Counted from the stretch's first letter, positions 43,963-64,000 are shown. The stretch: 64,000 nt of DNA from an uncultured Planctomycetia bacterium (GCA_964415355.1 CAYPYS010000007.1:11208-75207); one strand, 5' to 3'. Program-made: numbers and translations. The notes: generated by a model from the sequence alone, not told the origin.

Positions 43963-43980
43963 GAGTTGAAAGGGGGATCT

Positions 43981-44064
43981 ATGTATCGCAGGCGCATCAA
44001 CAGGATCACATCCATCGTAACTCTTCTGACGTTTCTTTCCACCAGCACCCTTTACGCAGCACCA
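43981..44064 (+). other. Shared 28-aa N-terminal leader, copy in giant ORF 1
   Basis: MYRRRINRITSIVTLLTFLSTSTLYAAP versus ORF3 MTWKIIRKITSIVILITFLSTNVIYAAP: 17/28 identical with no gaps. Basic n-region, hydrophobic core, and a YA|AP cleavage-like end. Confidence 0.8.
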
Positions 44065-48084: not shown

Positions 48085-48089
48085 GCTTT

Positions 48090-51000
48090 GTGCCTGGCTG
48101 GCCGTTTTTAGGAGAGTCAAATCAGATCAGGCTGTCTTTCCCGACAAACTCCCCTGATATTATAGACGGCGCAGTAAAGGCAGTTAGTATTGCCATAAAG
48201 GACAGCATGGGCAAAGGCACCCTGGCTATGGAAGGCCAGGTCCCTGCTGCTGATCTCGAGATCCTTACTAACTTTGGGACAGCCGGATGGCGAGGCACTG
48301 ATTTTACAGACGGCAATGTCAGGCGCATGGCACAGGCTGTTGCCGAAGTAGGGATAGCAGAAATCAATAAGCCTGTTTCTGAGATTCGCATGGCTGTCGG
48401 ATATGATGCAAGGCCTGGTGCCAGGGAAGATGCTATCCTCCTAACAGAGGTTCTGGTAGCGAACGGCATACACGTTGATTTCATAGATCAGGTATTGCCT
48501 TCACCCGTAATGATAGAGGTAACGCACGGAAGCGTTCCTGATTCAGAAAGATATGATCTAACGGTTTATTTTACCGCAAGTCATAATCCCGTGTATCAAT
48601 CGCTTGACCCGCTTAAGCAGTATAAAGGTATAAAGATATTAATAGAGGGTGTTCCTGCCGGCGATGAGTTTACCTCAAAGATATCAGCTCGAGCAAATGA
48701 CCTGGCCAAGAATGCCACATATAAATATATTCCCTTTGATCAGATTCCGGATATGCTTATTACGCATGACGTGGATCTTATTGCAAAAGATAGAGCTCGA
48801 CTTGAAAAAGCCTTTGGGCTTTCAGATTATGGAGTAAAAATAGCCAGATTATTTACTATATTTCCTAATTTGACGATTCGCATAAGTCCGATGAACGGTG
48901 CGACCGTGGAACAGATCGCTATATTCGATAAAATAGGCCTACCTGTAGTTTTTTATGATACCGCGCCTTTGCATGAAGTTATAGCCAGCGGAGAATACGA
49001 GCTTCAGACTGCAGACGGGATAATGAAAGGACCTGATCCGACAAAACCCTATAATCTTAATGCAGAGATGTTAAAAGATACAGAAGGGCAGGATGTCATA
49101 AAGTTTCTTATTGACGGAGACGGGGACCGTCTTGTTGTCGAGGATATAAACGGCAGGCCGATCACGCCTAATGAAATCGGTCTTATCATCGCCCATTATC
49201 TCCTGGAGCACAAGGGCGAGGAAGGTTACGTCGTCCGCACTTTGCCTACTACGAGAATGCTGGATCGTCTCGCAAGAAAATTTGGAATGCCTCTCGCGCA
49301 GACAGGAGTCGGCTCAAAGAACTTCGGGCCTTATACTGTTCAAGGGACCGAGCAGCGTCTTATCGTTGCCGTTGAAGAGAGCGGACATGTTTTCTTTAGA
49401 TTAGGCGATGAGATATTTGTCGACCATGCAGTAGCCGAGGCCTTGATCCTGCTCGATATCATGGCAACGACAGGCAAGACATTGACCCAGTATCTTGAGG
49501 AGGTCGAAAGAGAGCTGGGGACTATTCATTATAAACGGGATGCCGTGGCCAAGGAATTAGCGGTCCCTGGCCTGAAGCGCGGGCTATTGTGGCTGCGCAA
49601 TAATGATCCTGAGCTTTTGGCGCGCGCAATCGCAGATGAACTGGGTATGGATTTGAAAGGTTTTGATCCATTGGATAAGACCGGTGTCCTTGTAACCTTT
49701 GAAGATGATCAATGGATTTTACCTCGCGCATCAGGCACGACAAATACTATAAGGATTTACGCTGAGACGAGTTCTCAGGAAGATCTGGAAAAATGGATAA
49801 GCGGAGCAGAAAGGGTTTTGGTAAAACTTGTCAATGATATGGCTGCTCAAGGCATACTGGACAGGTCTCCGGATATCTGGTCGCATGTTATAGAAAGAGG
49901 AAAATCTCTCGCAGGCGATATCGTGAAGTGGCTCGGCTGGGTAGATGCGCCTGTGAGATTTTTGAAACGGATGTCAAAGATTAGAAGCTTGAAGTCAGAG
50001 CTTGCAGAGGAAGGCATAACCAATGTCGTTGTCCTTGGCACCGGAGGATCAGGCCTGGGTATAGGGACTTACGCCGAGGTCTTTGAAAAAGATAATTTAA
50101 TAGTCATTGATTTAGAAGATCCTCAGGGCATACAGAATGCAATGGCATGGGTCGATGAAAGGGGTTGGGATAAGACGATCTTTACTGTGCAGAGCAAATC
50201 CTGGGGCACTACTGAAACAAGAAACGCAGAGGCAGTTTTCAGGCAGGTCCTGGCTGATCGGATAGGGGCTGAAAATGTAGCCCGGCATTTTATAGCAGTG
50301 ACTGACGCAGGCAGGATAAAGGGAGAAGAGAGGGCTAATTTTAGGGAAATATTTGCGACTAATTATCCCGGAGATGCCAGGAAAGGTCGCGATATAGGTG
50401 GCAGATATTCTTCAGATTCCTTCTTTAGTCTTGTTCCGGCTGAATTAGCAGGCATACCCCATGAAGAGCTTTTAGTGGATGCCCGCGATGAATATAACCA
50501 GTTCAGGCGAGAGCTTGGAGAATATATAGGTGTCCGCATAGGCGCAGAGCTTAGCAGGTTCCACGGCCTTGGCAGAAATAAAATTACCTTTATATTAGAT
50601 AAAGGCCTTGAAGCATTTGGACCGTGGGTGCAGCAGCTTATAAATGAATCCGTAGGCAAGAACGAAGATACCGTAGTCTGTGTTACCGGAGAAGAATTTT
50701 CAGGAGATAGTTCTGTGTATGGGGATGACAGGGTCTTTGTGAAGATCGCTATAGGTAAAGGTCCTGCTATGCAAGTCACAGAACAAGGCATTGTTCTCAT
50801 AGTCGAAAGTAAAAATGACATAAATAGATTGCAATATAGGTTCAAGGTAGCTACTGCTATCCTGGCAAATCTAATGGGTGTGCACCCGTTTAATCAGCCG
50901 TTTGTCGAGAGCAGTAAATGGATTACAAAGGGTCTCCTGGATTCGGAGTTGACTCCTGAGCAGCTCACAGCAGAGCTTGTCGTAGCCGCATCTGAAAATT

Positions 51001-51899
51001 TAAAGAAATACGAAGGAGCAGAGGTCGCTATGCATTACACAGGAAGGACAGAAGACGCTATTGACATTGACCTGGAAACTGCTTCTGTGGAAGATGTATT
51101 GGCAGCATTTCTGGCAACAATAGAGTCAGGGGATTATATCTATCTTTCTCCTTATACATTTGATTCTCCTGCGCTGCAAAAGGCCTTTTCTGAGATAAGG
51201 AGTATTATAAGAGATAATCATCCTGCTCATCCAGCCACGCTTTTTGGCATTGGCTCAAGGAGCCAGCATTCCGACAATCAGCTTAATAACGCCACTGACC
51301 AGGCAACGGTATTGGCGTTTACCTTTGATTCGGCCGAAGGTGTTGATAGGGCAGTGCCCGGTAAAAATTATACACTGGCTCAGGAAAACATGGCGCATGC
51401 ATTGGGAACGGTAGGCGCGCTGGAGGATAAGGGAAGAAGGGTCATGAGGATCCACCTTTCCGATGAGTACAGGCAGGACATAACAAAATTAACAGCACTC
51501 TTTGAGAAAGCCGTTGCAAGGATGCGCGGAATGGAATTAGTCAGGTCATCGAGTAAGCAGCAGGCCGCGTCAATGGAACAGATCCTGGTCGTTCCCGCAA
51601 ACAAGGTAATAGCCGATAAAGAGGGTTTTGAAAAATGGATGTCATCCGGCCGCCAGGAAAATAACGCTGTGGTGATAGTAGCTTATGATGTCGACGAATA
51701 CAATCGGGTCAAGGAATTCGGGGACATTGCCTATATAAGGGTAGTCGGAAAGGATATTAGCGAGGAATACGACCTTAAGCTGCTCCAGATGTTTGCATTG
51801 TTCGGAAAAGATAATATGTTTGGCGGATTTATACTTGGGACACCGGCTGACCTGGATGATTTCAGATCAGTTTCCGAAGAGATATCCTCTGGCGTCTAA
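48090..51899 (+). CDS. Giant fusion ORF 2 (1269 aa): aminotransferase C-terminal remnant, alpha-D-phosphohexomutase, glucose-6-phosphate isomerase, shared C-terminal domain
   Basis: GTG start 5 nt after the ORF1 stop, in the -1 frame. 'FVPGWPFLGESNQIRLSF' (aminotransferase end); 'FGTAGWRG', 'TASHNP', 'DGDGDR', 'EESGH', 'RASGTTNTIRIYAE' (PGM/PMM); 'GTGGSGLG', 'SKSWGTTET', 'GGRYSS' (PGI). Confidence 0.8.
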   Translation: MPGWPFLGESNQIRLSFPTNSPDIIDGAVKAVSIAIKDSMGKGTLAMEGQVPAADLEILTNFGTAGWRGTDFTDGNVRRMAQAVAEVGIAEINKPVSEIRMAVGYDARPGAREDAILLTEVLVANGIHVDFIDQVLPSPVMIEVTHGSVPDSERYDLTVYFTASHNPVYQSLDPLKQYKGIKILIEGVPAGDEFTSKISARANDLAKNATYKYIPFDQIPDMLITHDVDLIAKDRARLEKAFGLSDYGVKIARLFTIFPNLTIRISPMNGATVEQIAIFDKIGLPVVFYDTAPLHEVIASGEYELQTADGIMKGPDPTKPYNLNAEMLKDTEGQDVIKFLIDGDGDRLVVEDINGRPITPNEIGLIIAHYLLEHKGEEGYVVRTLPTTRMLDRLARKFGMPLAQTGVGSKNFGPYTVQGTEQRLIVAVEESGHVFFRLGDEIFVDHAVAEALILLDIMATTGKTLTQYLEEVERELGTIHYKRDAVAKELAVPGLKRGLLWLRNNDPELLARAIADELGMDLKGFDPLDKTGVLVTFEDDQWILPRASGTTNTIRIYAETSSQEDLEKWISGAERVLVKLVNDMAAQGILDRSPDIWSHVIERGKSLAGDIVKWLGWVDAPVRFLKRMSKIRSLKSELAEEGITNVVVLGTGGSGLGIGTYAEVFEKDNLIVIDLEDPQGIQNAMAWVDERGWDKTIFTVQSKSWGTTETRNAEAVFRQVLADRIGAENVARHFIAVTDAGRIKGEERANFREIFATNYPGDARKGRDIGGRYSSDSFFSLVPAELAGIPHEELLVDARDEYNQFRRELGEYIGVRIGAELSRFHGLGRNKITFILDKGLEAFGPWVQQLINESVGKNEDTVVCVTGEEFSGDSSVYGDDRVFVKIAIGKGPAMQVTEQGIVLIVESKNDINRLQYRFKVATAILANLMGVHPFNQPFVESSKWITKGLLDSELTPEQLTAELVVAASENLKKYEGAEVAMHYTGRTEDAIDIDLETASVEDVLAAFLATIESGDYIYLSPYTFDSPALQKAFSEIRSIIRDNHPAHPATLFGIGSRSQHSDNQLNNATDQATVLAFTFDSAEGVDRAVPGKNYTLAQENMAHALGTVGALEDKGRRVMRIHLSDEYRQDITKLTALFEKAVARMRGMELVRSSSKQQAASMEQILVVPANKVIADKEGFEKWMSSGRQENNAVVIVAYDVDEYNRVKEFGDIAYIRVVGKDISEEYDLKLLQMFALFGKDNMFGGFILGTPADLDDFRSVSEEISSGV
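48264..49830 (+). other. alpha-D-phosphohexomutase (PGM/PMM/GlmM-family) module
   Basis: Catalytic-Ser loop 'TASHNP' (48573-48590), metal loop 'DGDGDR' (49113-49130), sugar loop 'EESGH', phosphate loop 'RASGTTNTIRIY'. Confidence 0.8.
49900..51540 (+). other. Glucose-6-phosphate isomerase (SIS-fold PGI) module
   Basis: 'VVVLGTGGSGLG', 'SKSWGTTET' (50193-50219), 'IGGRYSSDS', 'GIGSRSQHSDNQL'. Confidence 0.7.
51576..51896 (+). other. Shared C-terminal domain (~107 aa), copy in giant ORF 2
   Basis: EQILVVPANKVIADKEGFEKW...AVVIVAYDVDEYNRVKEFGDIAYIRVVGKDISEE...NMFGGFILG...DLDDFRSVSEEISSGV. About half the positions are identical to the ORF3 C-terminus. Confidence 0.8.
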
Positions 51900-51989: not shown

Positions 51990-52038
51990 TTTTTGGTGTT
52001 GTTGGCAAAGAGATTTAAAAAGAGCAAAATGATTTTAT

Positions 52039-52060
52039 TAGTAATACTATAGATTTACTA
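52039..52060. promoter_or_regulatory. Inverted repeat TAGTAA-N10-TTACTA upstream of the Rrf2 gene (candidate autoregulatory operator)
   Basis: tagtaa (52039-52044) and ttacta (52055-52060) are reverse complements. The spacer contains -10-like tactat/tataga. Sits 20 nt before the rrf2 ATG. Confidence 0.3.
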
Positions 52061-52079
52061 GCATAGAGGGTATTTTAGT

Positions 52080-52520
52080 ATGAAGATATCTACAAGAATC
52101 AGATATGGCACGCGTTTGATGCTGGAATTAGGGCTTTCTTATAAGGAAGGCCCTATTTTTTTAAAAGATATTGCCAGGAAGCAGGAGATCTCTGAAAAAT
52201 ATTTAAGCCAGATCATCATTCCTCTAAAGGCTGCAGGCCTGATCAATACTTATAATGGCGCTCACAGCGGATATGTCCTAGCTAAATCTCCGCAAGAAAT
52301 AACAGTGAAAGAGATAGCAGAGATCGTAGAAGGGAATTTCGATCTTATAGAATGTGTGACTAACCCTTCCGGATGTGCACGCGCAGCTATGTGTGCGACA
52401 AGAGATCTATGGGATGATCTGGGCAGGACGATCGCGGAAAAACTCGATTCATTCACTATTAAGGATTTAATAGATAGATCCAAAGAAAAACAGGAAAATT
52501 CAACAGCATATAATATCTGA
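52080..52520 (+). CDS. Rrf2-family (IscR/NsrR-like) transcriptional regulator with a three-Cys cluster-binding motif
   Basis: 'MKISTRIRYGTRLMLELG' N-terminus, wHTH 'ISEKYLSQIIIPLKAAGLI', Cys motif 'CVTNPSGCARAAMC'. The stop lies 25 nt before giant ORF 3 with no repeat between. Confidence 0.85.
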   Translation: MKISTRIRYGTRLMLELGLSYKEGPIFLKDIARKQEISEKYLSQIIIPLKAAGLINTYNGAHSGYVLAKSPQEITVKEIAEIVEGNFDLIECVTNPSGCARAAMCATRDLWDDLGRTIAEKLDSFTIKDLIDRSKEKQENSTAYNI

Positions 52521-52545
52521 TTATCCTAGGACAAGGAGATTAAAA

Positions 52546-52629
52546 ATGACCTGGAAAATTATAAGAAAAATTACTTCTATTGTAATACTCATAACTTTTC
52601 TATCTACCAATGTCATATACGCGGCTCCG
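52546..52629 (+). other. Shared 28-aa N-terminal leader, copy in giant ORF 3
   Basis: MTWKIIRKITSIVILITFLSTNVIYAAP. The nucleotide sequences of the two leaders differ at many synonymous sites, so the peptide is conserved rather than recently copied. Confidence 0.8.
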
Positions 52630-55600
52630 GGGCCCCGCAAGACACTAAGGGTGCCTCTGGGGTTTGCGAGAGAAAAGCTTTTAGAGCAGGAGCAAACAGG
52701 GCTTCCCACAAAGGAAATGCTTCTTATGATGGCCCAGGCAGTAGCCATGAGGATGGATGACGAATCCATACTCATGGATCTAGGGACTACTTTTTTCAAC
52801 ACAGCCTTTCGCAGAAATCTCGGCTCTCCTATCGAGATCCGCAGGAATAAAAATACAGGTACAGTCCATATCCGTTACAATGACAGATATATATCCATAA
52901 CAAGAAGCGGAAACATATCCGTGTCAAGCAGAATAAACTTTGATAAAGCCGAGCTCGTGATTGCCAGCATCAAGCCGCTTGTCGCATCCTCTTCTGATCC
53001 GACTGATAAAAAAGACAGGACAATAGGGTCTCTTCTCGGACTAATGGAGACATTTGCAGATCTCGGGCTCAAGCCAGGAGAGAAGATAACCATAAATGAC
53101 ATAATCCCTGAAAGAAAAAAGCAGGACGGTACATTGTATTCTCGTACGACAGTCTCAAGAGAATTTAAGGATGCAGTGGCGCTTGACCTTTTGAGGCTCA
53201 CAGGCAACAAGATAAAAAATAGCAATGAATATGAAGTCCTGAAGTCTTTTACGAGAGAACAGCTTAGTAGATTGCCGGGGCATATAAGGAAAAAGTTAAA
53301 CAGGGGCAGGATCAGATCTGATGAGATAGAAGAGCTCAGGCGCATATTCATAGCTGAGACATTAATGGGGCAAGGGACATTGCTGAAGGTATTCCTGGCA
53401 GGCCTTGCAGGTTTTCAGGAGGCGCTTGCAGACATACCTTATGATCTTTCAGGCGCAAATACTGAGACGGTCCAGAGTTTATTCACGGCTGTTGAAAACA
53501 TAGTTTTCCTGGCAAGGGATTTTGATAAAAAAGATCCTGCCTATGCCGAGGCTTATATCTATGAAAGCTTAGGGTTTGTTGATATTGATGGGAAAAGAAG
53601 ACTTGCTCTTGTCATCACGCCTTTTGAGGACAGGAGAAAGACCGGGTCCCTGGATGTCCTGGTATTTGATTCGCTTCTATCCGCGAATTATACGAGCCAC
53701 GCAATAAAAGCGACAGAAATAGAAATGGTGTCTACTATTGTCGGACGCCTGGATGAAAAGGATATTATCTCGCTTTCTCTTAAGTTCAGGGCAGAGTATC
53801 TGGATAACCCTGATGGCCCTGGCACGAGCGACACAAGGCGATCTGCCAAGGATTTTTTCCTGTATTTTGCCTCAAAGCGTAACGCAACCCAGGAAATATT
53901 GGATTTGGACGAAGAACTGATAGATGGTCTGGAGGGAAGGGACCTGGAAATAAAAGAACGCATGGCGCGCCTGAAAGAGGGCGTGTCGGATAAAGATCTT
54001 CTGGACGAATGGTTTATAGAAATTATGCAGGGAAAAGATACTCTTGTTCAGTACCTGTTATACACAGGGGACGCGGCTACATTCTGGTATGATTTACTGC
54101 TGGAGCTTGATTATACGCGCGCAATAAATGAGATGTTTTTATCAAGGCCTGACGCAATGACAACTTATGCCAGAAATGCATACGAACAGGCAGTCGTGGC
54201 CTCATGGATTTATATTCACCGCGCTGATTTTGGATCGCCTTTAGGAGAGAGGGCAGCCGAGGACAGAATAGAGGATTTTCAGCTGGCCCTGACATGGGAC
54301 ACGCTTGGCATACCAGGCCAGAAGGCGCTTGGCATGACAAAGGCAGAGTTTCCTGTGTGCTTGAATTGTGTTGGAAGGCCCTGTCAGCATGGGCCGCTGG
54401 GAAGCGTTGCTGCCCAGACGCGCACAAGGTCGGGTTTCGCCTCAGGCATAAGGTCTTTGATAGAAGACAATAATGTCTCTGCCAGCGTTCAGTTAGAGGG
54501 CGTATTTATATCCGAAGGAGTTTCATACTTAACCCATTTATATAATTATGCTGAACTATTGCTTATAGACCAGGCAGACGTCACCAGGTGGATGAATATG
54601 ACAGCGAGGGAACTGGACAGCGAAATAAGGTTGTTGACAGATGATGCAGACGCAATAGATCAAGAGGCAAAAAACATCGCAGAGCCGCATTGCCCGTTAG
54701 AGGTTCCTATCGCGGATATGTTCAGGCTTATGCGGCAGGATAGATTTGAAGAGGCGCTTGAGATCTTGAATAACAGCAGTTTTCTTGCAGGTATCTTCGG
54801 GCTCGTATGTCCCCAGGAACACCTGTGTCAGGCCGCGTGCGTCCAGGGCAGGCTGAGCGACAGGCCTTTGCCCATAGATATAGGAAAATTAGAATATCTC
54901 ATAGAGCTTACTTATATGAGGATAAACGGAGAATTGCCTATGCCTGAGGTCGCACCATTTACAGGAAAGTATGTCGCGATTATAGGTTCTGGCCCGGCAG
55001 GACTTCAGGCAGCATATGACCTGGCAAGAGAGGGTCACAAAGTGGTTTTATTCGAGCACCTGCATAAGGTCGGAGGTGTTTTAGTATATGGTATACCTAC
55101 ATTCAGGCTTCCTCCCGAGCTCCTCGAAGAAAAGGTCAGGATACTTAAGGAGATGGGCGTAAACTTTGTCACGAATGCTATTATAGGAGAAGACGGTGCG
55201 TATACCATAGAGGAGATGAGAAGATCATTTGACGCAGTAATAGTGGGCGTTGGCGCAGGCCAGTCAAACAAGATGGAGATAAGAGGCAAGGTGGTCCTTC
55301 TCGACGAAAAAACAGGAAGGGCAAGATTAGAGGTGCCTGAATACGCAAAGAGAGTGCCGATACCGGGCAGGGCCTTGAATGGCATTTATTCAGCGTATCA
55401 TTTTCTTTCATGGACATATCTGATGAATGCAATAAAGCCGGGTTATGATACGCCCATACCGCTCTCAAAAAATATACTCCAAGCATTTACGGAATCCAGG
55501 GCTACAGGAGAGGAAAAAGAAGTTACTGTGGTCGTAGAGGGCATAGGAAACGTGGCGCTGGACAGCGGCAGGACAGCTCTCAGATGGATAAATGTCCTGA

Positions 55601-58600
55601 ACAGGATATATGGCACAAATGTCAGGCCAAAGATCATATTCCTCTACAGGCGTCCGAGGGAAGAACTGGACCTCAAGGCGCGCGCAGAGGAATTAAAACA
55701 TCTCAGGGAAGAAGGCGTTGACACAATAGACATAGACGTATATGAGCTTCACCAGACCGTTGAATATCTCGGAAATACAAAGGGACATATAGAAGGAATA
55801 AGGGCCATAAGGTATGACAGAAAAGGCGCTAAGGAAGGCGTGCTGGTCGACATCCCCGTTGACATGGTTGTAGAAGCCCTGGGAGCAAAGCCGGCGACCG
55901 AGATATTAGGACCTTCCATACCTTTAAATAGATACGGGTATATCGAGATAGATAATCACAGGACAATGCAGGTAAGAGACATGGACGGCTCTGATGGCCT
56001 GGCGCCTGTATATGCTGTCGGAGACTGCGCAGAGGTGGACGCTATAGATGAAAGGATTATGGCGACCGCTGTCCTTGCTGCAACGCATGGAAAAAGGGCA
56101 TCCGAGGCACTCATAGAAAGACTGGATAATGAGACTGGCATGGTTCAGAGATATATAGATATCGATAAGGTATTTTTTAAAGCTACTCCATACAGGATGC
56201 ATGAGATATTGGAAAGGCGCAGGATAGGCAAAAGAGAGCTTGTATCCAGGCCGCTACGCGGAGATACGGGCAATGTTTTTAGCGAGCAGAGGATCGTGGA
56301 ATTTACTATTTATGCGCCTCATGTAGCCCGCAGGATCAGACCGGGCCAGTTTGTAACGCTGATGGCAGATGAATACAGCGAGAAAATACCTATAACATAT
56401 GTCGGTCTTGGAAAGATAAAAGGCAGTATACGCCTTGCCATCCTTGACGCAGGCGAATCAACAGTAAAAATAAATAATATGAAAAAGGGTGATTTGTTTT
56501 ACGCAGTCACCGGACCTGCAGGAGAACCTTCGATCTTTACAGGGCTGGCAGGCGAGGTAGACCTGGTGGGGTTGGGCAGTGGCATAGCCGCGATTGTCGG
56601 CATCGCCGAGCACAGGGCAGACCTGGACAGGAAATATAAAGAGTTGATGGCCAGGCTGGCAGGCAATTCCCGCGCAGATGTAGTCCTGTCGCTGATAGAA
56701 GAGATTTGGTCAGAATTGAGTCTTGCAAAGGATGATCTTTTGCACTATATAGTCGATGCGATAAGAGACAGGGATTATAATGAAGCAAAGAATCTGTTGA
56801 CAGCACTTGCCTACTCTATTGAACAGGATTTTCCGGCGAGCGAGCTTATAGCAGATGCAGAAGCACTGGTTGATACGATAACCATGCTCGAGGATTCTGT
56901 AGAAGACGAGGATGAATTGAATCTGCTTGTAAAACAGGAGGTCTATCAGGCGATAGACGATATATGGGAAGAGTTTGAGATATTAAAGAGAGAGAAACTA
57001 TTAAGGGAAATCAGTGATTTTGTATCTTCCGGAAATTACAAAAATGCATCTAATGCCTTGAATGCCGTTATCGGCGCAGGCTTTGAGACAAAGGTATTTC
57101 TGGCTGTCGGGAATAAGGATCTTTTGATGTATAAGACCGAGCTGGAAGAGGCTGTTGGCAGGGAGAACATATTCATAGCGCTTGAGGATGCCGAGGGCTT
57201 TGATCCGCATGCCGAAGGATATGCCAGCCTGATAGCGCATGAGAACAGGTTTTTTACAGGTTATGGCACTATTGCTTTTGGGGATTATTTAGGCAGGACG
57301 CATGATCCTATTAGCGGATTGTTGGTAGCAGGACCTGCGTTCGCAATGAATCTTTTTGTGCCATTGGTCAGAGAAGCAAACAGGCCTGATATCCTGAGTA
57401 CGAGAGACGTGTGGATGAGTACTAACCCGCCCATGTACTGTGCCTACGGCGGTTGTTTGATGTGTCTGGTGGCTACAGAACAGGCGATTCCGTGGCGCGG
57501 GTGTTTAGGTCCTGAGGCAGAGGCAGATATGCTTATCGGCGATTCTATTGTCAAGGGGCTTGAAATGAGCAAGCCTCAAGACATAATGCCGGGCGTTATA
57601 TTCAGCACGTCACCTTCTGTTGACAGGGAGCAAGCGATATCTGATATAGTGCAGGCGCTTGATGAGATTCTTTATATGCCTACTGTAGATGGTAAATTAT
57701 TTGTTGCCATATCTGATGCAAAGGGTTCGTTTATCGCTGAGTTAAGAAATGGTATTTTAGAGGAGAGATTATCTGACGAGGATATTGATGCAGTGCTCGA
57801 GAATATTGATTGGGAAAGACTAGGTGTTTTTAAGCCAGGCCATAAGATAAGGTTTGCAGGTAGGATATCCGATGTCTCAGGATTAGAGCTTGATAGGGTC
57901 ATGGAATTGCTCGGACTGACAATGCAGGGTGGAAGCGGTGCAGAAGATTCTGATTCCGGGATGACGCTCGATGATTTATTCAGTAGGAGCTTGGATCTCT
58001 CGATACTTGGCATAGAGGTCATCGGAGAATTCCGCGAGGTCTCTATATCGCCTTCCGGTTTTTCACGGCTCCGGGCGTTCCTTGAGGAGATCGGCGATAG
58101 ACAGAAGTTGGAAGAAATTTTGGGACTCGAAGGAAGTGAGTTTATTTTTGTTATGAATGGCGCGAATGAGCTTGTCGCGATTGTGATCCGCAACGAGACC
58201 AGGCAGAAAGAGCTTCTATGGATAGAGGGAGAGGCATCGTCCGAACTTTTCAGCTATCTGACTCTGAGAGCCTCTCTGCGTGGCAGTTCTATATCCGCGG
58301 ACCTGACAGTGGAGGAGATAAAACCCGGCGCAATACTCGGACCCGGCGCGACCACTACTCCCGCAAGCTCTGCCCTGGCAAAGACAGGGACGTGGACCAC
58401 GAAATACGCAGAGCATGATCTTGATGCGTGCGTGCAGTGTGGCCTGTGCGCACTGGTATGTCCCGAAGGCGCGATAGCGTTTGATATGGAGCCGGCGCTG
58501 AATACAGGCAGGCTGGTCCTTCCGACAAATCCTGATTATTGCAAGGGCTGCGATGCCTGCGTGGTACATTGTCCTTTAAAAGGATACGCGCTTAAGATGA

Positions 58601-61600
58601 TAGAAAAGACAGACCTTCGCCAGGTAGCAGTATCTCTGGATACGAATCCTGAGGGAAGAGGCGTTGTTATCGAAGGCGCTCCGGCATTACAGTTTGAAGG
58701 GCTGTTTAAGGAAGGCATTGATAGATTCAAAAAGGCATTAGGGCTCGATGTAGTTGAGATAATCAGCGAGAGTGAATCTTTTGTGCAGGTGAGGTATGAG
58801 AGAGGTGACATAGCATATCTTTTTACATTCGATAAGAAAAATACAAGATTGATCTTGAAACCATTGAGGACATTTGCCGTCGTTGGCCTTGAGAGTAAAA
58901 ATATTGATCTGGCAGATGCATTGCGCAGCAGGGGATTTGCGGTTACCGGCTTGATTTCTACTAAAGACAGAGGTTTTAGAGATAAATTAATGGAGGCCGA
59001 GAGACAGGGTATCAGTGTTTATGCGATAGAAGCAGGTTTGCTAAACCCTGGTATTAGCGGCAGTCTTCAGGCATTGCTTAATGACATCGAACGCCTGCGT
59101 CTTGCTAGATTTGTCGCGGTTGACACAGAGACGATCAGGGAGATAATCGGCCTGGACGAATACACGAAACTCGTCGAGGAGATAAACGAATATACACATA
59201 ATTCTATAATAAACTCTGTGGATTTGTTGCCGACAGGCAACACAGACTTTGATGAGGTCATGGCGAGTTTTGCTCCCGAATGGCAGGACCAGGTTCGCGA
59301 CCTCGCGCCCGGACACGGCCTATGCCCCGGCTGCGGTCAGCCGACAGACACGCACCTTGTATTAAAGGTAGCGGATGAACATGGAATGGCGCCGGTGGGT
59401 GTCATTACGACAGGCTGCCAGGAAGTCTCGACCACTAACTGGCCTTTTAATTCATGGCGCATACCAATGGTCCACGGAAACTATACAGCATCAGCCGCAA
59501 TCGTCAGCGGTATCTTCCGTGTCTATCAGTGGTTCAAAAAGATGGGCGTAAGTGTTTACGGGGATAAAGAAATCTTGCCTATAGTTATTATGGGAGACGG
59601 TGGTTTTGCAATAGGGCTAAATGTAATATCAGGCGGCCTGGAAAAGGGATTACCGATTTTATATCTGGTCGAGAATAATTCAGGCACTCAGAATACGGGC
59701 GCGCAGGCATCCACGCTTTCGATGCCGGGCATAACTGCGCAAGGCGCCTCACAGGTAAAGACCACGCAAGGCGTGTATATACCTGATATAGCAAAGGCGC
59801 ACGGACCTAACGTCTATTACGCAAGGGTTTCCAATGCATATCCCGAAGATTTTGAGAGAAAATTAAACCGCGCAATGGAATGGATAAAACAGGGAAGAGG
59901 ACCTGCGGTCATAGAGTCTTTTAACACCGCATGCCCTACCGGCTGGAAGTCTGACGCGACACAGAGCCAGGAAGAAACCTCTCTTTCGGTCCAGACAGGC
60001 GTTGGCATGACTGTGCTTTTTGAGCAGGTCGGGAATCGCATAAGGATAACGCAACCACCTCTTCTAAGAGACGGAAAGATATATATAAATACAGAATATA
60101 TGCGAAGCCTGGAATATGAGTTAGGTCATTTAAGGAATGCCGGCGGCAAGAGGCTGTTATCTGACAGACAGGTGGCTTCCATGATTTCGCATATCAAGAA
60201 GAGAAGGGAATTTATTTTGGCAAGAGAGCTTGAAAGAAGACAGCCTAAAAAACCAGGCCTGCCGTTTGTCCAGCTCGACTTAGATGCGTTAAAGAACCTG
60301 CTTGTCCTTCATTCGTTCAACCTGCCTCTGGAGTCAGACCTATTGATAGACAGGTTGGATGTCCTGGGCCTTTCCGGAGACGAGATAGAGGACATTGCGC
60401 AGCATCGGTCAGAGGGTAATGAATTCAGAAACAGGCAGGACGTGCTTCGGTTTATAACCGATGTGCGTTACAGAGAGGTTACGGAAAGAATACTTGATAT
60501 ATATGACACAGTCGAGATCAGGGATTTTATTATGGAATGGACAGAGACAAAGGAAGAGGGAAATATCGATTTCGAGGAGACCGTTGTATTTGAGAAGATA
60601 GAAGATATTTTGAAAGTCCCGGGCATAGGGCCAGTGACGTATGATGCCGTAAGTCCGTATCTTACATTAGAACCGAGAAGACCTCATATATTCGAATACT
60701 TATCGAGACAGGGAAGATTCAGGAGGCTTCTTGGCTGGGATGACGAGGCGTTTCTGGGAGACATGCAGCGAGATGTGGACGCGCATATACTTAGGCTGAT
60801 GGCGCAGCATGAAAACGACAGGGCTTTCTTTGAGAACTTTGATAATTTACTGGCCAGAGGAGAAAAAATCCCGGTAGAGCAGTTCAGGTACAAGTCAGCA
60901 AGGGAGGCGCATGACAAGGCCCTTGTTCCTGCTAGAGTCATACCTGCGGATCCGGAAAGAAACATCAGGATTTTAGAACGCAGGGCAAGGCTAGGGGATA
61001 GGGTTTTTGAAGAACGCTGGCATGGAAGAGGCGGCCAGGGTGCTATTACTGCGGCAACGCTTCTGGCAACATATGCGGGCGAGGTAGAAGGTATAGGCAT
61101 TCAGGCGTTTCCGCACTTTGGGGTCGAACGCGCAGGTGCGCCTGTAAAGGCATATGTCAGAATGGGTAATAATATAAAACAGCATGACCCTGTTACGGAA
61201 CCTGATGTAGTAGTGGTTATAGATGAGTCTTTGCTGGAACTTCCCGAAGTGTTGGAAGGTATAAAGCCGGGCGGTTTTCTATTGGTGAATAGCAAAAAGC
61301 CGGCTGAAAAAATACTGGAAGAATTAAGGGCTAAAGGCAATGCGCTTAAGGATATTACTCTTTTTAGCGTGGACGCTACCGGTATAAGCATAAAACACAT
61401 GGGAAGAAATCTCCCTAATATTCCTATGCTGGCTGCGAGGATTATGGTTTCGAGGCTTACTGATGCAGACTTGGGTCCGGCAGAAGGCGCCACGGATTAC
61501 ATAAGGCAGCTTTTAGTAGAGATGTTTGGAGAAAAGATAGCCGGATTAAATTACGACGCGATGCAGGAATCAGTACGTTCTATAGATGCTGTATCAGGCG

Positions 61601-63657
61601 CTGTTGAAGAGTTGATAGAAGAGTTTCTGGCAAAAAGAGAGCCTGTTGAAATTGATGTTGCTCAACCGGAAGAAGAAGACGCAGCGCTAAAAAGTAATGT
61701 CAGGCTCATGAATTCAAACAAGGCAGCTGCTATTGCACAGGTGCAGTCTGGCGTAAAGTATGTCCCCGGCTATCCGACAACCCCTGCGAGCAGTGTGGTC
61801 GAGATATTGGATACATATCAGGACAAGGGCTTGCCGCTTATAGTATCGCTTCTTCCTGCAGAAGACTCAGTGGGCGGAGAATTACTTGGCACTGCGCTGG
61901 CAGGAGGCATGCCTGCGACAGGGACTACATCAGTGGCATTGGCGTATATGTTTAACCAGCATCTTGCAGATATGGTAGGTAAAAGGACGCCTGTTGTCGT
62001 AAATGTGCCTGTCCGCGCATTGAATATAGGTTCCTTGAGTATATTTCCCGACGAGACAGACATAGCAATGTTCAGGGATTATGGTGTGTATCTGCGCGCG
62101 CGCAATGCGCAGGAAGTGTATTATTTCAATATCATTGCGTGGAGGATCGCAAAGAAACTTAGGATGCCTGTATTCGTAGTGTATACGGGATTCCGCAACA
62201 GCCATACCACAGAACCTGTCGAAATACTCGGTGATTACGATAGAATAGAGGAGTATCTGGGCGGGACAGGATTATTTTCTATAAGAGATACTATACTGGA
62301 CCAGGAATCGCCTAAGATGATAGGGCCTGTTGTCGGCAAAGAGATCATGATGGAGCAGATGGCAGAGCTTTTTGAGGATATAGCACGAAATCAGGACCAT
62401 GTAATAGAGGAGGCTTTTGCGGAATTTGAAAGGCTCTTTGGTATTAGGTTTGATAGATTCAGGCAGTATAGGGTCGAGGATGCCGATGAGATAATAGTGG
62501 TGCAAGGAGATACAGGCGAGACTATCGAGCTTATGGTCGACAGATTAAGGGACCAGGGCAGAAGGGTCGGCGTAATAGAGATAGCTACAATAAGGCCTTT
62601 CCCCGGGAAGGAATTAAGAGAGGCGCTTGTTAATATAAATCCGAAGATAATAACTGTCCTGGATAATGCGCCGAGCCACTATTTGTATGATGATGTCGTA
62701 AGGTCTATCCAGTTTACAGATATACAGGTCTGGGGACCTGTGATATATGGTCTGGGCGGGAGGGATTTCTTCAGACAGGATGCGGTAACGCTTTATGATA
62801 CGCTGATCTCGCTTAGAGTGCTTCAGGCATTAGGAGCAAAAGAAAGTCCTGTTTCTCTGACCAGAGCGTCTCTGACGCAGCTTTTGAATGAGGAGGCAGT
62901 GACACTGGGCATGGCAAAGCACGGATTTGTCGAACCAGGCGATGCGCTTGCGGGCCGGCGAGGAGCAAGAAGCATCCCGGCGATACTTGACACGCTGGAT
63001 TTTGCAGCCAGCTCGGCTGATATGCCTGGATTTTCAAGAAACGCTGTCTTTGAAAAGTTGACGCAGGGTGAGCTCCTCAAGCTTTTTGGCGACGAGTATT
63101 ATTTTGGAGCTCGCAGGAAATATAAGCATGATCTGCTTATGCACGCGCTGGTGAATGAGTTGGCAGTCAGGCTTTCTAGGCAGTTACTGGGATCTAATAT
63201 CGGCACTATAGACGAGAGGACGCAGGCAATAGATGCGCTCGTGCATTTGAGTGACATAGAAGCGGATAAGGAACTCGCCAGAACAAGCTCTGAGAGTTTG
63301 CGCAAGTATCGACGCAGGGATCAGGTTGCTTCAACGGACCAGATTATCGCAGTGTCTGCCGCACAGGTCATAGCCGAGAAAAAAGAATTCGAGGCATGGA
63401 TAGAGAACCAGTCAGAGAATATTGCTGTAGTTATAATAGCTACGGCTGAAGAGTATTATCAGGTCAGGGAGTATGAGGACATCGCCTATATAAAGGTAGT
63501 GGGCAAGGACATTAGCGAAGCGCATGGCCTTACCTTGAAAAGGTTGTTGGCATTGCACGGTCATTTAGATAATTTCGGTGGCTTCAGGCTTGGCGACGAA
63601 AAGTTCGATCTAGACGAATACAGGTCAGCCCTGACCGAGCTCTCCACCGGCATCTAA
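52546..63657 (+). CDS. Giant fusion ORF 3 (3703 aa): signal-like leader, unknown ~600-aa region, NfnB/GltD-like flavoprotein, NfnA/PyrK-like module, PorD-, PorB-, PorC- and PorA-like 2-oxoacid:ferredoxin oxidoreductase modules, shared C-terminal domain
   Basis: Uninterrupted 11.1-kb ORF with SD aaggag 7 nt before the ATG. Domain motifs are listed in the separate domain features. Confidence 0.85.
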   Translation: MTWKIIRKITSIVILITFLSTNVIYAAPGPRKTLRVPLGFAREKLLEQEQTGLPTKEMLLMMAQAVAMRMDDESILMDLGTTFFNTAFRRNLGSPIEIRRNKNTGTVHIRYNDRYISITRSGNISVSSRINFDKAELVIASIKPLVASSSDPTDKKDRTIGSLLGLMETFADLGLKPGEKITINDIIPERKKQDGTLYSRTTVSREFKDAVALDLLRLTGNKIKNSNEYEVLKSFTREQLSRLPGHIRKKLNRGRIRSDEIEELRRIFIAETLMGQGTLLKVFLAGLAGFQEALADIPYDLSGANTETVQSLFTAVENIVFLARDFDKKDPAYAEAYIYESLGFVDIDGKRRLALVITPFEDRRKTGSLDVLVFDSLLSANYTSHAIKATEIEMVSTIVGRLDEKDIISLSLKFRAEYLDNPDGPGTSDTRRSAKDFFLYFASKRNATQEILDLDEELIDGLEGRDLEIKERMARLKEGVSDKDLLDEWFIEIMQGKDTLVQYLLYTGDAATFWYDLLLELDYTRAINEMFLSRPDAMTTYARNAYEQAVVASWIYIHRADFGSPLGERAAEDRIEDFQLALTWDTLGIPGQKALGMTKAEFPVCLNCVGRPCQHGPLGSVAAQTRTRSGFASGIRSLIEDNNVSASVQLEGVFISEGVSYLTHLYNYAELLLIDQADVTRWMNMTARELDSEIRLLTDDADAIDQEAKNIAEPHCPLEVPIADMFRLMRQDRFEEALEILNNSSFLAGIFGLVCPQEHLCQAACVQGRLSDRPLPIDIGKLEYLIELTYMRINGELPMPEVAPFTGKYVAIIGSGPAGLQAAYDLAREGHKVVLFEHLHKVGGVLVYGIPTFRLPPELLEEKVRILKEMGVNFVTNAIIGEDGAYTIEEMRRSFDAVIVGVGAGQSNKMEIRGKVVLLDEKTGRARLEVPEYAKRVPIPGRALNGIYSAYHFLSWTYLMNAIKPGYDTPIPLSKNILQAFTESRATGEEKEVTVVVEGIGNVALDSGRTALRWINVLNRIYGTNVRPKIIFLYRRPREELDLKARAEELKHLREEGVDTIDIDVYELHQTVEYLGNTKGHIEGIRAIRYDRKGAKEGVLVDIPVDMVVEALGAKPATEILGPSIPLNRYGYIEIDNHRTMQVRDMDGSDGLAPVYAVGDCAEVDAIDERIMATAVLAATHGKRASEALIERLDNETGMVQRYIDIDKVFFKATPYRMHEILERRRIGKRELVSRPLRGDTGNVFSEQRIVEFTIYAPHVARRIRPGQFVTLMADEYSEKIPITYVGLGKIKGSIRLAILDAGESTVKINNMKKGDLFYAVTGPAGEPSIFTGLAGEVDLVGLGSGIAAIVGIAEHRADLDRKYKELMARLAGNSRADVVLSLIEEIWSELSLAKDDLLHYIVDAIRDRDYNEAKNLLTALAYSIEQDFPASELIADAEALVDTITMLEDSVEDEDELNLLVKQEVYQAIDDIWEEFEILKREKLLREISDFVSSGNYKNASNALNAVIGAGFETKVFLAVGNKDLLMYKTELEEAVGRENIFIALEDAEGFDPHAEGYASLIAHENRFFTGYGTIAFGDYLGRTHDPISGLLVAGPAFAMNLFVPLVREANRPDILSTRDVWMSTNPPMYCAYGGCLMCLVATEQAIPWRGCLGPEAEADMLIGDSIVKGLEMSKPQDIMPGVIFSTSPSVDREQAISDIVQALDEILYMPTVDGKLFVAISDAKGSFIAELRNGILEERLSDEDIDAVLENIDWERLGVFKPGHKIRFAGRISDVSGLELDRVMELLGLTMQGGSGAEDSDSGMTLDDLFSRSLDLSILGIEVIGEFREVSISPSGFSRLRAFLEEIGDRQKLEEILGLEGSEFIFVMNGANELVAIVIRNETRQKELLWIEGEASSELFSYLTLRASLRGSSISADLTVEEIKPGAILGPGATTTPASSALAKTGTWTTKYAEHDLDACVQCGLCALVCPEGAIAFDMEPALNTGRLVLPTNPDYCKGCDACVVHCPLKGYALKMIEKTDLRQVAVSLDTNPEGRGVVIEGAPALQFEGLFKEGIDRFKKALGLDVVEIISESESFVQVRYERGDIAYLFTFDKKNTRLILKPLRTFAVVGLESKNIDLADALRSRGFAVTGLISTKDRGFRDKLMEAERQGISVYAIEAGLLNPGISGSLQALLNDIERLRLARFVAVDTETIREIIGLDEYTKLVEEINEYTHNSIINSVDLLPTGNTDFDEVMASFAPEWQDQVRDLAPGHGLCPGCGQPTDTHLVLKVADEHGMAPVGVITTGCQEVSTTNWPFNSWRIPMVHGNYTASAAIVSGIFRVYQWFKKMGVSVYGDKEILPIVIMGDGGFAIGLNVISGGLEKGLPILYLVENNSGTQNTGAQASTLSMPGITAQGASQVKTTQGVYIPDIAKAHGPNVYYARVSNAYPEDFERKLNRAMEWIKQGRGPAVIESFNTACPTGWKSDATQSQEETSLSVQTGVGMTVLFEQVGNRIRITQPPLLRDGKIYINTEYMRSLEYELGHLRNAGGKRLLSDRQVASMISHIKKRREFILARELERRQPKKPGLPFVQLDLDALKNLLVLHSFNLPLESDLLIDRLDVLGLSGDEIEDIAQHRSEGNEFRNRQDVLRFITDVRYREVTERILDIYDTVEIRDFIMEWTETKEEGNIDFEETVVFEKIEDILKVPGIGPVTYDAVSPYLTLEPRRPHIFEYLSRQGRFRRLLGWDDEAFLGDMQRDVDAHILRLMAQHENDRAFFENFDNLLARGEKIPVEQFRYKSAREAHDKALVPARVIPADPERNIRILERRARLGDRVFEERWHGRGGQGAITAATLLATYAGEVEGIGIQAFPHFGVERAGAPVKAYVRMGNNIKQHDPVTEPDVVVVIDESLLELPEVLEGIKPGGFLLVNSKKPAEKILEELRAKGNALKDITLFSVDATGISIKHMGRNLPNIPMLAARIMVSRLTDADLGPAEGATDYIRQLLVEMFGEKIAGLNYDAMQESVRSIDAVSGAVEELIEEFLAKREPVEIDVAQPEEEDAALKSNVRLMNSNKAAAIAQVQSGVKYVPGYPTTPASSVVEILDTYQDKGLPLIVSLLPAEDSVGGELLGTALAGGMPATGTTSVALAYMFNQHLADMVGKRTPVVVNVPVRALNIGSLSIFPDETDIAMFRDYGVYLRARNAQEVYYFNIIAWRIAKKLRMPVFVVYTGFRNSHTTEPVEILGDYDRIEEYLGGTGLFSIRDTILDQESPKMIGPVVGKEIMMEQMAELFEDIARNQDHVIEEAFAEFERLFGIRFDRFRQYRVEDADEIIVVQGDTGETIELMVDRLRDQGRRVGVIEIATIRPFPGKELREALVNINPKIITVLDNAPSHYLYDDVVRSIQFTDIQVWGPVIYGLGGRDFFRQDAVTLYDTLISLRVLQALGAKESPVSLTRASLTQLLNEEAVTLGMAKHGFVEPGDALAGRRGARSIPAILDTLDFAASSADMPGFSRNAVFEKLTQGELLKLFGDEYYFGARRKYKHDLLMHALVNELAVRLSRQLLGSNIGTIDERTQAIDALVHLSDIEADKELARTSSESLRKYRRRDQVASTDQIIAVSAAQVIAEKKEFEAWIENQSENIAVVIIATAEEYYQVREYEDIAYIKVVGKDISEAHGLTLKRLLALHGHLDNFGGFRLGDEKFDLDEYRSALTELSTGI
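54358..56125 (+). other. NfnB / GltD-like (glutamate synthase small-subunit family) FAD/NAD(P)H oxidoreductase module with a split N-terminal Fe-S motif
   Basis: 'CLNCVGRPC' ... (~100-aa insert) ... 'HCPLEVPI', 'GLVCPQEHLCQAAC', dinucleotide fold 'KYVAIIGSGPAGLQAAYDLAREGHKVVLFE', 'GGVLVYGIPTFRLP', 'VYAVGDCA'. Confidence 0.75.
56165..57530 (+). other. NfnA / PyrK-like ferredoxin-NADP reductase-type module (FAD barrel, NAD fold, 2Fe-2S) with a ~155-aa helical insertion
   Basis: 'RPGQFVTLM', 'IPITYVG', 'TGPAGEP', 'DLVGLGSGIAAIVGIAEH', then an insertion at 56610-57085. The fold resumes at 'KVFLAVGN' and ends in the Cys motif 'MYCAYGGCLMCLV...RGCLGPE'. Confidence 0.65.
58320..58610 (+). other. 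PorD-like (delta subunit) 2x[4Fe-4S] ferredoxin module
   Basis: 'KPGAILGPGATTTP...KTGTWTT' followed by 'CVQCGLCALVCP' (58428-58463) and 'CKGCDACVVHCP' (58540-58575). Confidence 0.85.
59300..60030 (+). other. PorB-like (beta subunit) thiamine-diphosphate-binding module
   Basis: 'GHGLCPGCG', 'TTGCQEV', TPP motif 'GDGGFAIGLNVISGGLEKGLPILYLVENN' (GDG-X24-NN), 'NTACPTGW'. All four Fe-S Cys positions are present. Confidence 0.85.
60365..60665 (+). other. Two ComEA-like helix-hairpin-helix-type segments in the PorB-PorC linker
   Basis: 'IEDIAQHRSEGNEFRNRQDVLRFI' and 'ILKVPGIGPVTYDAVSPYL' resemble the A-x-x-I-x-x-yR-x-x-G-x-F...L-x-x-V-PGIG pattern. Confidence 0.35.
60990..61490 (+). other. PorC-like (gamma subunit) module
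   Basis: 'WHGRGGQGAITAATLLA', 'AFPHFGVERAGAPV', 'PDVVVVIDESL', 'VDATGISIKHMGRNLPNIPMLAA'. Confidence 0.85.
61695..62815 (+). other. PorA-like (alpha subunit) module
   Basis: 'MNSNKAAAIAQVQSGVKYVPGYPTTPASSVVE', 'AEDSVGGELLGTALAGGMPATGTTSVALAYM', 'TPVVVNVPVRAL', 'PVFVVYTGFRNSHTTEPVE', 'IRPFP'. Confidence 0.85.
63337..63654 (+). other. Shared C-terminal domain (~106 aa), copy in giant ORF 3
   Basis: DQIIAVSAAQVIAEKKEFEAW...AVVIIATAEEYYQVREYEDIAYIKVVGKDISEA...DNFGGFRLG...DLDEYRSALTELSTGI. Confidence 0.8.
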
Positions 63658-63692
63658 GTTTACATTTTAACGTTGTTGAAATGTAAACTTAG
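63655..63692 (+). repeat. Palindromic repeat copy 37 (T1 variant, fwd)
   Basis: taagtttacattttaacgttgttgaaatgtaaacttag; TAA is the stop of giant ORF 3. Confidence 0.9.
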
Positions 63693-63697
63693 CGGTA

Positions 63698-63747
63698 GAA
63701 AAAAATTAAAAAATAGCACTTGACATGCATCAGCTCTATGATATAAT
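63698..63747 (+). promoter_or_regulatory. rRNA operon promoter with A-rich UP-like element and extended -10
   Basis: gaaaaaaattaaaaaatag (UP-like), TTGACA (63720-63725), 16-nt spacer ending in TGa, TATAAT (63742-63747). Confidence 0.7.
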
Positions 63748-63827
63748 TTGTAATTACCAAAATGGATAATTTATTGGTGAATTCTCCTTGATAATGTAAT
63801 TTGACATATTGTTAAGGGAAGATGTGA

Positions 63828-63856
63828 AAGGACATCGTCTCGATGTCCTTTTTTTT
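63828..63856 (+). promoter_or_regulatory. Leader hairpin plus T-run (boxB-like or terminator-like) in the rRNA leader
   Basis: aaggacatcg (63828-63837) / cgatgtcctt (63841-63850), a perfect 10-bp stem with a 3-nt loop, then a T-run to 63856. Confidence 0.6.
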
Positions 63857-63867
63857 GCTCTTTGAAA
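63856..63867 (+). promoter_or_regulatory. boxA-like antitermination element
   Basis: tgctctttgaaa versus the E. coli rrn boxA TGCTCTTTAACA (10/12), directly after the leader hairpin. Confidence 0.55.
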
Positions 63868-63905
63868 TTCAGCCAAACTGACAGGAAACTGAGTTACGTT
63901 AAATT

Positions 63906-64000
63906 TTTTTGGAGAGTTTGATTCTGGCTCAGAACGAACGTTGGCGGCGTGGATAAGGCATGCAAGTCGAACGGTCCGCTTCGGCGGACAGTGGCAAAAG
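63906..64000 (+). rRNA. rrs: 16S ribosomal RNA, 5' end (partial, continues beyond the window)
   Basis: 'agagtttgattctggctcagaacgaacgttggcggcgtggataaggcatgcaagtcgaacgg' matches the universal 5' region (27F primer site, helix 1-5 sequence). The start is set by alignment of AGAGTTTGAT to E. coli position 8. Confidence 0.9.

Follow-up and report, generated by a model that had tools for sequence, protein, structure and literature searches.

The locus and its giant protein

We analyzed a window of 64,000 nucleotides (nt) from an uncultured Planctomycetia bacterium (GCA_964415355.1, CAYPYS010000007.1:11208-75207). Positions are counted from its first letter. One open reading frame (ORF) in the window encodes a protein of 3,703 amino acids (aa), hereafter the giant, in which the Pfam and NCBIfam matches fall in the order NfnB, NfnA, PorD, PorB, PorG, and PorA. 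A preliminary description had proposed that large insertions interrupt cofactor-binding motifs inside its two flavoprotein modules. Here we place two such inserts on the enzyme fold, follow them through independent assemblies and into an orthologue, and weigh what they may do. The ORF, taken from the ORF list, translation, and Pfam and NCBIfam matches, and the modules as the two databases delimit them, are as follows.

52546-63657, plus strand: single ORF, 3,703 aa
aa ~708-715 (start of the match) to ~1200: GltD/NfnB-like module
aa ~1245-1680: PyrK/NfnA-like module
aa 1955-2013: PorD-type 2x[4Fe-4S] module
aa 2250-2510: PorB module, binding thiamine pyrophosphate (TPP)
aa 2821-3011: PorG module
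aa 3052-3420: PorA module

The first cluster motif of the NfnB-like module is split by 99 residues

NfnB proteins carry two cluster motifs, RCx2Cx4Cx3CPV (first) and GRVCPQExQCx3Cx13Gx2ER (second) (PMC6405883). In the giant, all four cysteines and the proline of the first motif are present with correct internal spacings, and its contiguity is broken by 99 aa: C605-x2-C608-x4-C613 is followed, after aa 617-715, by C716-P717. The preliminary description had read CLNCVGRPC and HCP as halves of one motif roughly 100 aa apart. Both strings lie where it put them, at aa 605-613 (54358-54384) and from 54688 (C716 at 54691), and alignment by MAFFT sets the gap at 99 aa. The parts of the module are listed here.

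54241-54393, plus strand: displaced N-terminal NfnB segment, aa 566-616, holding C605, C608, and C613 (54358-54384)
54394-54690, plus strand: insert 1, 99 aa (aa 617-715), from a MAFFT alignment with 27 NfnB sequences
54691-54900, plus strand: fourth cysteine (C716-P717) and second cluster motif GLVCPQEHLCQAAC...GKLEY (C755, C761, C765, E783), with Pfam Fer4_20 from aa 712 and a phmmer match to 4YLF_B
54946-56145, plus strand: NfnB-like FAD and NADPH domains, with IIGSGPAGL, EGIGNVALD, and LYRRP aligned to invariant columns
55279-55359, plus strand: small insert, 27 aa (aa 912-938), between the GAG motif and IPGR of the FAD domain
55474-55527, plus strand: small insert, 18 aa (aa 977-994), common to the giant and its homologues P0166 and P0167 (see below)

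Insert 1, between the third and fourth cysteines of RCx2Cx4Cx3CP, is mildly acidic (isoelectric point [pI] 4.4) and free of cysteine, and AlphaFold2 models it as three helices with low confidence. The second motif is present as GLVCPQEHLCQAAC, 14 residues, and G-KL-EY, with C755, C761, C765, and E783 invariant in the alignments; it deviates in a spacer slightly longer than in the reference and in EY in place of ER. Among the best database relatives, which are A-B fused Nfn proteins of ~35% identity, the first motif is contiguous in 120 of 120.

We built a profile of the 44 residues upstream of the fourth cysteine from these relatives. Against the whole giant it gave one match only, at aa 605-616. 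On isolated segments it gave two colinear matches within aa 560-620, GERAAEDRIEDFQ and CLNCVGRPCQHG, and no match in aa 672-715, directly before C716. We also fused every 44-mer of the giant (~3,650 windows) to aa 716-800 and scored the products against the Fe-S domain profile. The native in-register splice, 573-616 joined to 716 onwards, ranked first with 69.9 bits, versus 50.7 bits for the core alone and a splice background of 51.9 ± 1.4 bits; the second-best window was the CxxCxxC motif of PorD.

Deletion of insert 1 in silico raised the phmmer score to 4YLF_B, the NfnB of T. maritima, from 197 to 216 bits and moved the start of the alignment from residue 49 to residue 30 of that protein, with the insert-free CLNCvgrPCqhgCP pairing with its C39-C42-C47-C51-P. 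With P. furiosus NfnI-L and Xfn, the alignment now begins at residue 12, and the alignments to 4YLF_B, 5JCA_L, and 5VJ7_A run through the triad segment. Nor does the pattern look like chance: of the 24 cysteines in the giant, 23 align with cofactor-ligand motifs, aa 1-604 hold none, and the only one outside ligand motifs is C1161.

Because the profile matches, the splice test, the structure alignments, and the cysteine distribution agree, the split-motif reading holds, and CLNCVGRPC can be taken as homologous to the N-terminal motif of GltD and NfnB. The opposite possibility, that the domain simply starts at ~54685, was not borne out, as the upstream triad is homologous and the proximal segment lacks profile similarity. 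At the level of sequence comparison, the NfnB-like module is thus shown to begin near aa 566, not near aa 714. By alignment, the ligands kept are C605, C608, C613, and C765 for one [4Fe-4S] cluster, and C716, C755, C761, and E783 for a Glu(Cys)3 cluster. Loss of the first cluster, which the preliminary description had offered as an alternative, is disfavored: the seven cysteines and the glutamate are kept here and in the orthologue, where their surroundings are 32% identical.

We note that default MAFFT runs with full-length or partly trimmed relatives forced the relatives' N-termini onto aa 672-715, a placement without profile support, and likewise forced the beta2 region of NfnA onto the start of the insert in that module; trimming the relatives or adding the orthologue corrected the misplacements. 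We also asked whether aa 672-715 might be a decayed duplicate of the N-terminal segment, an idea rejected for want of any profile similarity.

Downstream of the clusters, the FAD GxGxxG, NADPH GxGxxA, and YRR motifs are present on an adrenodoxin-reductase-like fold, and the top Foldseek matches of the module are 5jca_L (E = 8e-31) and 4ylf_B (E = 6e-29). NCBIfam TIGR01316 (gltA) scores 240.1 bits and its cut-off of 471.75 is not reached; judged by its sequence, the module is no equivalog but a divergent relative rich in inserts. The 27-aa insert is specific to this species, being absent from P0166 and P0167.

A duplicated helical insert in the Rossmann fold of the NfnA-like module

The preliminary description had the NAD-binding fold of the PyrK/NfnA-like module begin at DLVGLGSGIAAIVGIAEH (56560-56613), break off for ~155 aa, and resume at KVFLAVGNKDLL (57091-57126). 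Both strings are found at those positions, and a deletion scan bounds the interruption at 151 aa.

56278-56622, plus strand: FAD beta-barrel, then beta1, GLGSG loop, and helix alpha1 of the NAD-binding fold, aa 1245-1359, from phmmer matches to 4YLF_A and 5JCA_S
56623-57075, plus strand: insert 2 as bounded by the deletion scan, 151 aa (aa 1360-1510), in the loop between alpha1 and beta2 of the Rossmann fold
56656-56829 and 56914-57090, plus strand: repeat units of insert 2, the second reaching 15 nt beyond the scan-defined insert end
57076-57585, plus strand: rest of the module, from beta2 (KVFLAVG) to the end of the Rossmann fold, and an all-Cys [2Fe-2S] motif
57439-57504, plus strand: the all-Cys [2Fe-2S] motif, C1632-x4-C1637-x2-C1640-x12-C1653

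The NfnA profile gave three colinear matches (aa 1247-1368, 1507-1548, and 1587-1660), and aa 1245-1359 correspond to its positions 13-133. The scan had its optimum at deletion of aa 1360-1510, which took the single-domain profile score from 79.0 bits up to 96.6; 150-aa control deletions peaked at the same site. Insert 2 is highly acidic, as had been claimed (D+E 22.5%, net charge -19, pI 4.2), and nearly free of glycine and proline (G+P 2.6%). Its description as heptad-like did not survive: hydrophobic periodicity at 3.5 or 7 residues is no higher than in shuffled sequences, and in place of a coiled coil AlphaFold2 predicts a bundle of seven helices, 11-40 residues long. Direct local alignment revealed that insert 2 is a tandem duplication of a ~59-aa unit (score 64 versus 27.7 ± 5.4 for shuffles, reached by 0 of 2,000). 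The repeat is seen solely in this way, as a BLASTP self-comparison found no internal repeat, and the unit was not found elsewhere in the window.

With the orthologue in the alignment, AlphaFold2 modeled the NfnA-like module at a mean predicted local distance difference test score (pLDDT) of 81.8 and a predicted template modeling score of 0.81. Within this model, aa 1245-1359 have pLDDT 84-94, and insert 2 forms about seven helices at pLDDT 78-94, with alpha1 extended into the insert. The confidently modeled core agrees with the earlier claim of an otherwise intact fold. An FNR-like barrel and a Rossmann fold with the flavin-binding strand ERxPxT are present. The Nfn-specific Asp(Cys)3 motif DGTGMCGxCRx10CV is absent: a cysteine occupies the aspartate position, as in PyrK, and the same holds in P0166.

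Both inserts are real, coding in frame, and inherited

Through exact look-ups of the neighboring genes we obtained twenty contigs that match the window at 98.4-100% identity; they come from many samples, in ENA, Logan, and JGI assemblies. The inserts are present wherever these contigs reach them, without indels, and the sole apparent break is a scaffold N-run. The preliminary description had made absence from independent assemblies a test of its reading, and no such absence was found. One JGI contig (L011) carries the same 3,703-aa gene call. The inserts are in frame, with 0 stops versus 4-17 in the other frames, and free of frameshifts in about twenty contigs. From ~56510, contig L015 follows a haplotype 16% divergent in DNA in which insert 2 is kept without indels. 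Over 133 insert codons of this haplotype, the ratio of nonsynonymous to synonymous substitution rates (dN/dS) is 0.25, versus 0.05 in the adjacent core, and a rough hand-computed chi-square puts the departure of insert 2 from neutrality at about p = 1e-4. Insert 2 is therefore under purifying selection.

Abrupt switches to haplotypes ~16-23% divergent occur inside the giant gene in L015 (56512-57035) and in L001 and L002 (57370-57459), and several assemblies break exactly at the switch points 56513 and 57464. The likely cause is either a second, divergent strain in the samples or hypervariability of the stretch around insert 2.

An exhaustive search over 1.84 billion representative proteins returned P0165, identical to the giant; P0166, an orthologue of 3,969 aa with 47% identity; and P0167, a 373-aa fragment with 58% identity. 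The remaining matches were generic NfnB proteins at ≤200 bits. P0166 is encoded in a syntenic locus (LytB, S1, TyrRS, Rrf2, giant) in GCA_964445715.1 and in a Logan assembly. It has the architecture of the giant, with CAACAWTPCGLG, a 112-aa insert, and CPLHLPIP in the NfnB-like module and a 163-aa insert at the NfnA site. A related homologue thus carries both inserts at the same sites, as the preliminary description had suggested checking. The catalytic cores are 43-60% identical between the two proteins and the PorD module 31%; insert 1 is 31%, insert 2 23%, and the spacers between modules 29-35% identical. Of the 24 cysteines, 23 are kept in P0166, and the differing one is the nonligand C1161. 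Both pairs of inserts are homologous (insert 1 and the 112-aa insert, z = 8.0; insert 2 and the 163-aa insert, z = 8.9; 0 of 1,000 shuffles in each case). These comparisons of sequence show both inserts to be older than the split from the 47%-identity orthologue and to evolve faster than the cores.

Scans of genome and metagenome contigs returned solely generic NfnB/GltD genes, all with a contiguous motif. No relatives of the inserts were detected elsewhere (for insert 2, by window scan, Pfam, and a word-index protein search), and insert 1 has no Pfam family. The word-index search missed the giant and P0166 despite their presence in the collection, and its negatives for very long proteins need caution.

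Spacers, termini, and neighboring genes

The claim that comparable unassigned spacers separate the Por modules proved correct: a Pfam search found no family above threshold in aa 1681-1950, 2016-2245, or 2511-2820. The N-terminal 570 aa and the C-terminal 280 aa likewise have no Pfam family assigned. The spacer between PorB and PorG has a weak HHH_3 (helix-hairpin-helix) match at aa 2681-2707 (60586-60666), with E = 3.8e-5 on the isolated spacer, under the Pfam cut-off. Residues 1-30 (52546-52635) form a segment resembling a signal peptide or signal anchor, MTWKIIRKITSIVILITFLSTNVIYAAPGP, kept in P0166 as MSSIIKKIVSVIMLITFSSTNILYAAPP, in which a twin-arginine motif is absent. Judged from its sequence, such an N-terminus is unexpected for an Fe-S/flavin/TPP protein, and a membrane tether is possible.

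A gene for an Rrf2-family regulator lies directly upstream of the giant gene (52080-52520), and the same pairing occurs in the orthologous locus (L024/L025). Given this conserved pairing, the regulator may control the giant gene. About 250 nt past the stop codon of the giant, a bacterial small-subunit rRNA gene begins (63906-64000; Rfam RF00177, 70.9 bits) and is cut by the window end.

Farther upstream, 43966-51899 hold an ORF of 1,372 aa and a PGM-PGI fusion ORF of 1,269 aa. The C-terminal aminotransferase domain of the former ends at profile position 243 of 361. In another contig, L005, the two ORFs form one called gene of 2,639 aa, and L006 has a cut call of 2,243 aa; a single-A difference separates the window at 48074 from L005, L006, and L012. 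This difference may stem from a frameshift in the window, a sequencing error, or variation between strains. The nearest relatives of the PGM-PGI fusion, P0131-P0134 (loci L022 and L023), are other PGM fusions of 1,238-2,204 aa with different partners (transaldolase, glucosamine-6-P isomerase-like), one of them named Candidatus Omnitrophota, a name that suggests this lineage for the giant as well. Over-long multi-enzyme fusions appear to be a lineage trait. A synteny walk from P0133 and P0134 found no giant nearby.

Discussion

In the reading we consider probable, the giant is an Nfn-plus-POR enzyme in a single chain whose cofactor-binding modules remain intact, and the two inserts within them are structural excursions that are translated and inherited. 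Several points weigh against this view. AlphaFold2 places aa 565-714 of the NfnB module at pLDDT 30-50, and for that reason neither confirms nor refutes packing of the triad at the cluster site. The confident model of insert 2 draws on two sequences for that stretch and is to be read as a prediction. The known family consists of two full-length members and one fragment. Between orthologues the inserts are 23-31% identical and variable in length, and one 27-aa insert is species-specific, as would also be expected of expansions tolerated under weak constraint. That the triad belongs to the distal cluster would follow from homology, partly through the ligand numbering of dihydropyrimidine dehydrogenase (DPD) and NADPH-glutamate synthase (GltS), and a docking or scaffold role, drawn by analogy, is plausible.

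A possible, if somewhat unlikely, account is that the inserts are tolerated bloat: weakly constrained expansions in surface loops, like the orphan spacers, with no function beyond sparing the fold. Their identity between orthologues is low (31% and 23%, versus higher values in the cores), their lengths differ (99 versus 112 aa and 151 versus 163 aa), the 27-aa insert is present in this species alone, no relatives of the inserts are detectable, insert 2 arose by simple tandem duplication, and the neighboring genes are likewise over-long fusions with unassigned sequence. However, both inserts lie at the same sites in orthologues of 47% identity with significant sequence similarity, the dN/dS of insert 2 lies away from neutrality, AlphaFold2 gives insert 2 a confident compact fold, and frameshifts and stops are absent in about twenty contigs.

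At the other extreme, the inserts and spacers might be purpose-built connectors, with insert 1 docking the PorD-like 8Fe module, the split cluster site acting as a hinge, and the whole being a ferredoxin-free, single-chain, pyruvate-oxidizing, NAD(P)-linked, possibly confurcating oxidoreductase. We regard this full version as doubtful.

It is very improbable that the triad lies outside the GltD/NfnB site, with the module starting near aa 714 and the distal cluster lost, or the triad forming some other metal site. Pfam and NCBIfam matches do begin only at aa 708-715, default MAFFT aligns relatives contiguously to aa 672-715, and AlphaFold2 gives no confident placement of the triad. Yet aa 672-715 have no profile similarity, whereas aa 566-616 give two colinear matches; the in-register splice ranks first of ~3,650; and alignments to solved structures run through the motif after the splice. 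The triad is also kept in the orthologue despite surroundings of 32% identity, as is C765, a ligand of the same cluster in homologues, and apart from C1161 the protein has no nonligand cysteine.

That the inserts are removed or unreal (inteins, introns, or assembly or chimera artifacts) has next to no likelihood, for although a conserved cofactor motif is a typical intein site and a cysteine typically follows, as C716 follows insert 1, and several contigs end inside the giant gene, the C-terminal junction lacks His-Asn (G/PLGS...EPH/C here and ENK/C in P0166, slashes marking the junctions), the inserts are predicted to be all-helical and not of the HINT beta fold, with no intein/Hint match in Pfam, excision from C613 would leave the motif one cysteine short, an Rfam search of 52000-64000 found no intron family, the inserts are in frame and conserved at the protein level, and identical sequence recurs across many samples in the ENA, Logan, and JGI assemblies, the inserts being free of indels.

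We return to structural excursions within intact modules and to what they may do there. In Rossmann folds, the loop joining alpha1 to beta2 is found at the edge of the sheet away from where the nucleotide binds; insert 2 therefore need not disturb NAD(H) binding. GltD-type modules hold two clusters, a Glu(Cys)3 one (cluster I of GltS) and an all-Cys one facing the partner; Phe54 of GltS, adjoining the third cysteine of the first motif, has been proposed to mediate transfer to the partner cluster (PMC8097209). For NfnB, the predicted docking site of ferredoxin is close to the distal cluster (PMC6405883, PMC5861303). Homology with GltS, DPD, and NfnAB would make the all-Cys cluster, to which the displaced triad contributes, the distal, partner-facing one. 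If so, insert 1 would emerge at the surface where ferredoxin or a partner subunit docks, leaving the chain three residues after C613, the third cysteine, as a ligand of that cluster. Insert 1 may then serve to bring the PorD-like 8Fe ferredoxin module up against the distal cluster, and electrons would pass between POR and Nfn within one polypeptide. Together with the equally orphan spacers, the inserts would hold and orient the fused modules. Such an architectural role is plausibly the most economical reading, with insert 1 as a candidate docking surface for the PorD-like module.

Among known systems, both modules match the Nfn structures 4YLF and 5JCA best, in sequence as in fold. These structures share with the giant the two-cluster helical domain with Glu(Cys)3 and Cys4 ligand sets, the FAD and NADPH motifs including YRR, and the NfnA/PyrK-type barrel, Rossmann fold, and [2Fe-2S] tail. 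The giant differs in its first cysteine motif, split by 99 aa, in the extra 151 aa of its Rossmann alpha1-beta2 loop, in the fusion of its modules B-then-A followed by four POR modules, in its all-Cys, PyrK-like [2Fe-2S] site, where Asp(Cys)3 is the NfnA hallmark, and in scores far under the curated NCBIfam cut-offs. Pyruvate:NADP+ oxidoreductase of Euglena and Cryptosporidium, a PFOR fused to an NADPH-cytochrome P450 reductase (CPR) module, likewise joins pyruvate oxidation to pyridine-nucleotide reduction in one polypeptide. It differs in being eukaryotic and in having a reductase of FMN/FAD CPR type, not Nfn type, and we know of no split cluster motif in it. Searching the literature, we came upon no account of an Nfn-POR fusion or of these samples.

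The "pattern C" fused Nfn proteins of Actinobacteria and Proteobacteria have the NfnB part N-terminal and the NfnA part C-terminal and are longer than A-B fusions (PMC6405883). They resemble the giant in the B-then-A order within one polypeptide; by description they are set apart, as the review mentions neither a split cysteine motif nor a POR fusion (PMC6405883). The closest database relatives of the giant are A-B fusions with contiguous motifs, not pattern C. DPD and GltS also have a GltD-like module whose distal N-terminal cluster hands electrons to partner clusters, which are those of an 8Fe ferredoxin-like domain in DPD and the alpha-subunit [3Fe-4S] in GltS (PMC8097209). By analogy, this wiring may serve as a precedent for docking of the PorD-like module. 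Unlike the giant, DPD and GltS have a contiguous first cysteine motif, other partner enzymes, and no large helical inserts.

The giant is an unusual version of known enzyme families and not a new kind of system, and, since enzymes often carry insertions in surface loops, it adds only modestly to general knowledge. Pfam, NCBIfam, and default multiple alignments all missed the first three ligands and would wrongly imply a missing cluster. If our reading is true, a canonical Fe-S ligand motif split by ~100 residues can remain conserved, and the giant is an example of a multi-subunit Nfn and POR system rebuilt as one chain via orphan helical connectors, which could inform views of metabolism in uncultured Omnitrophota as well as the design of fused redox enzymes.

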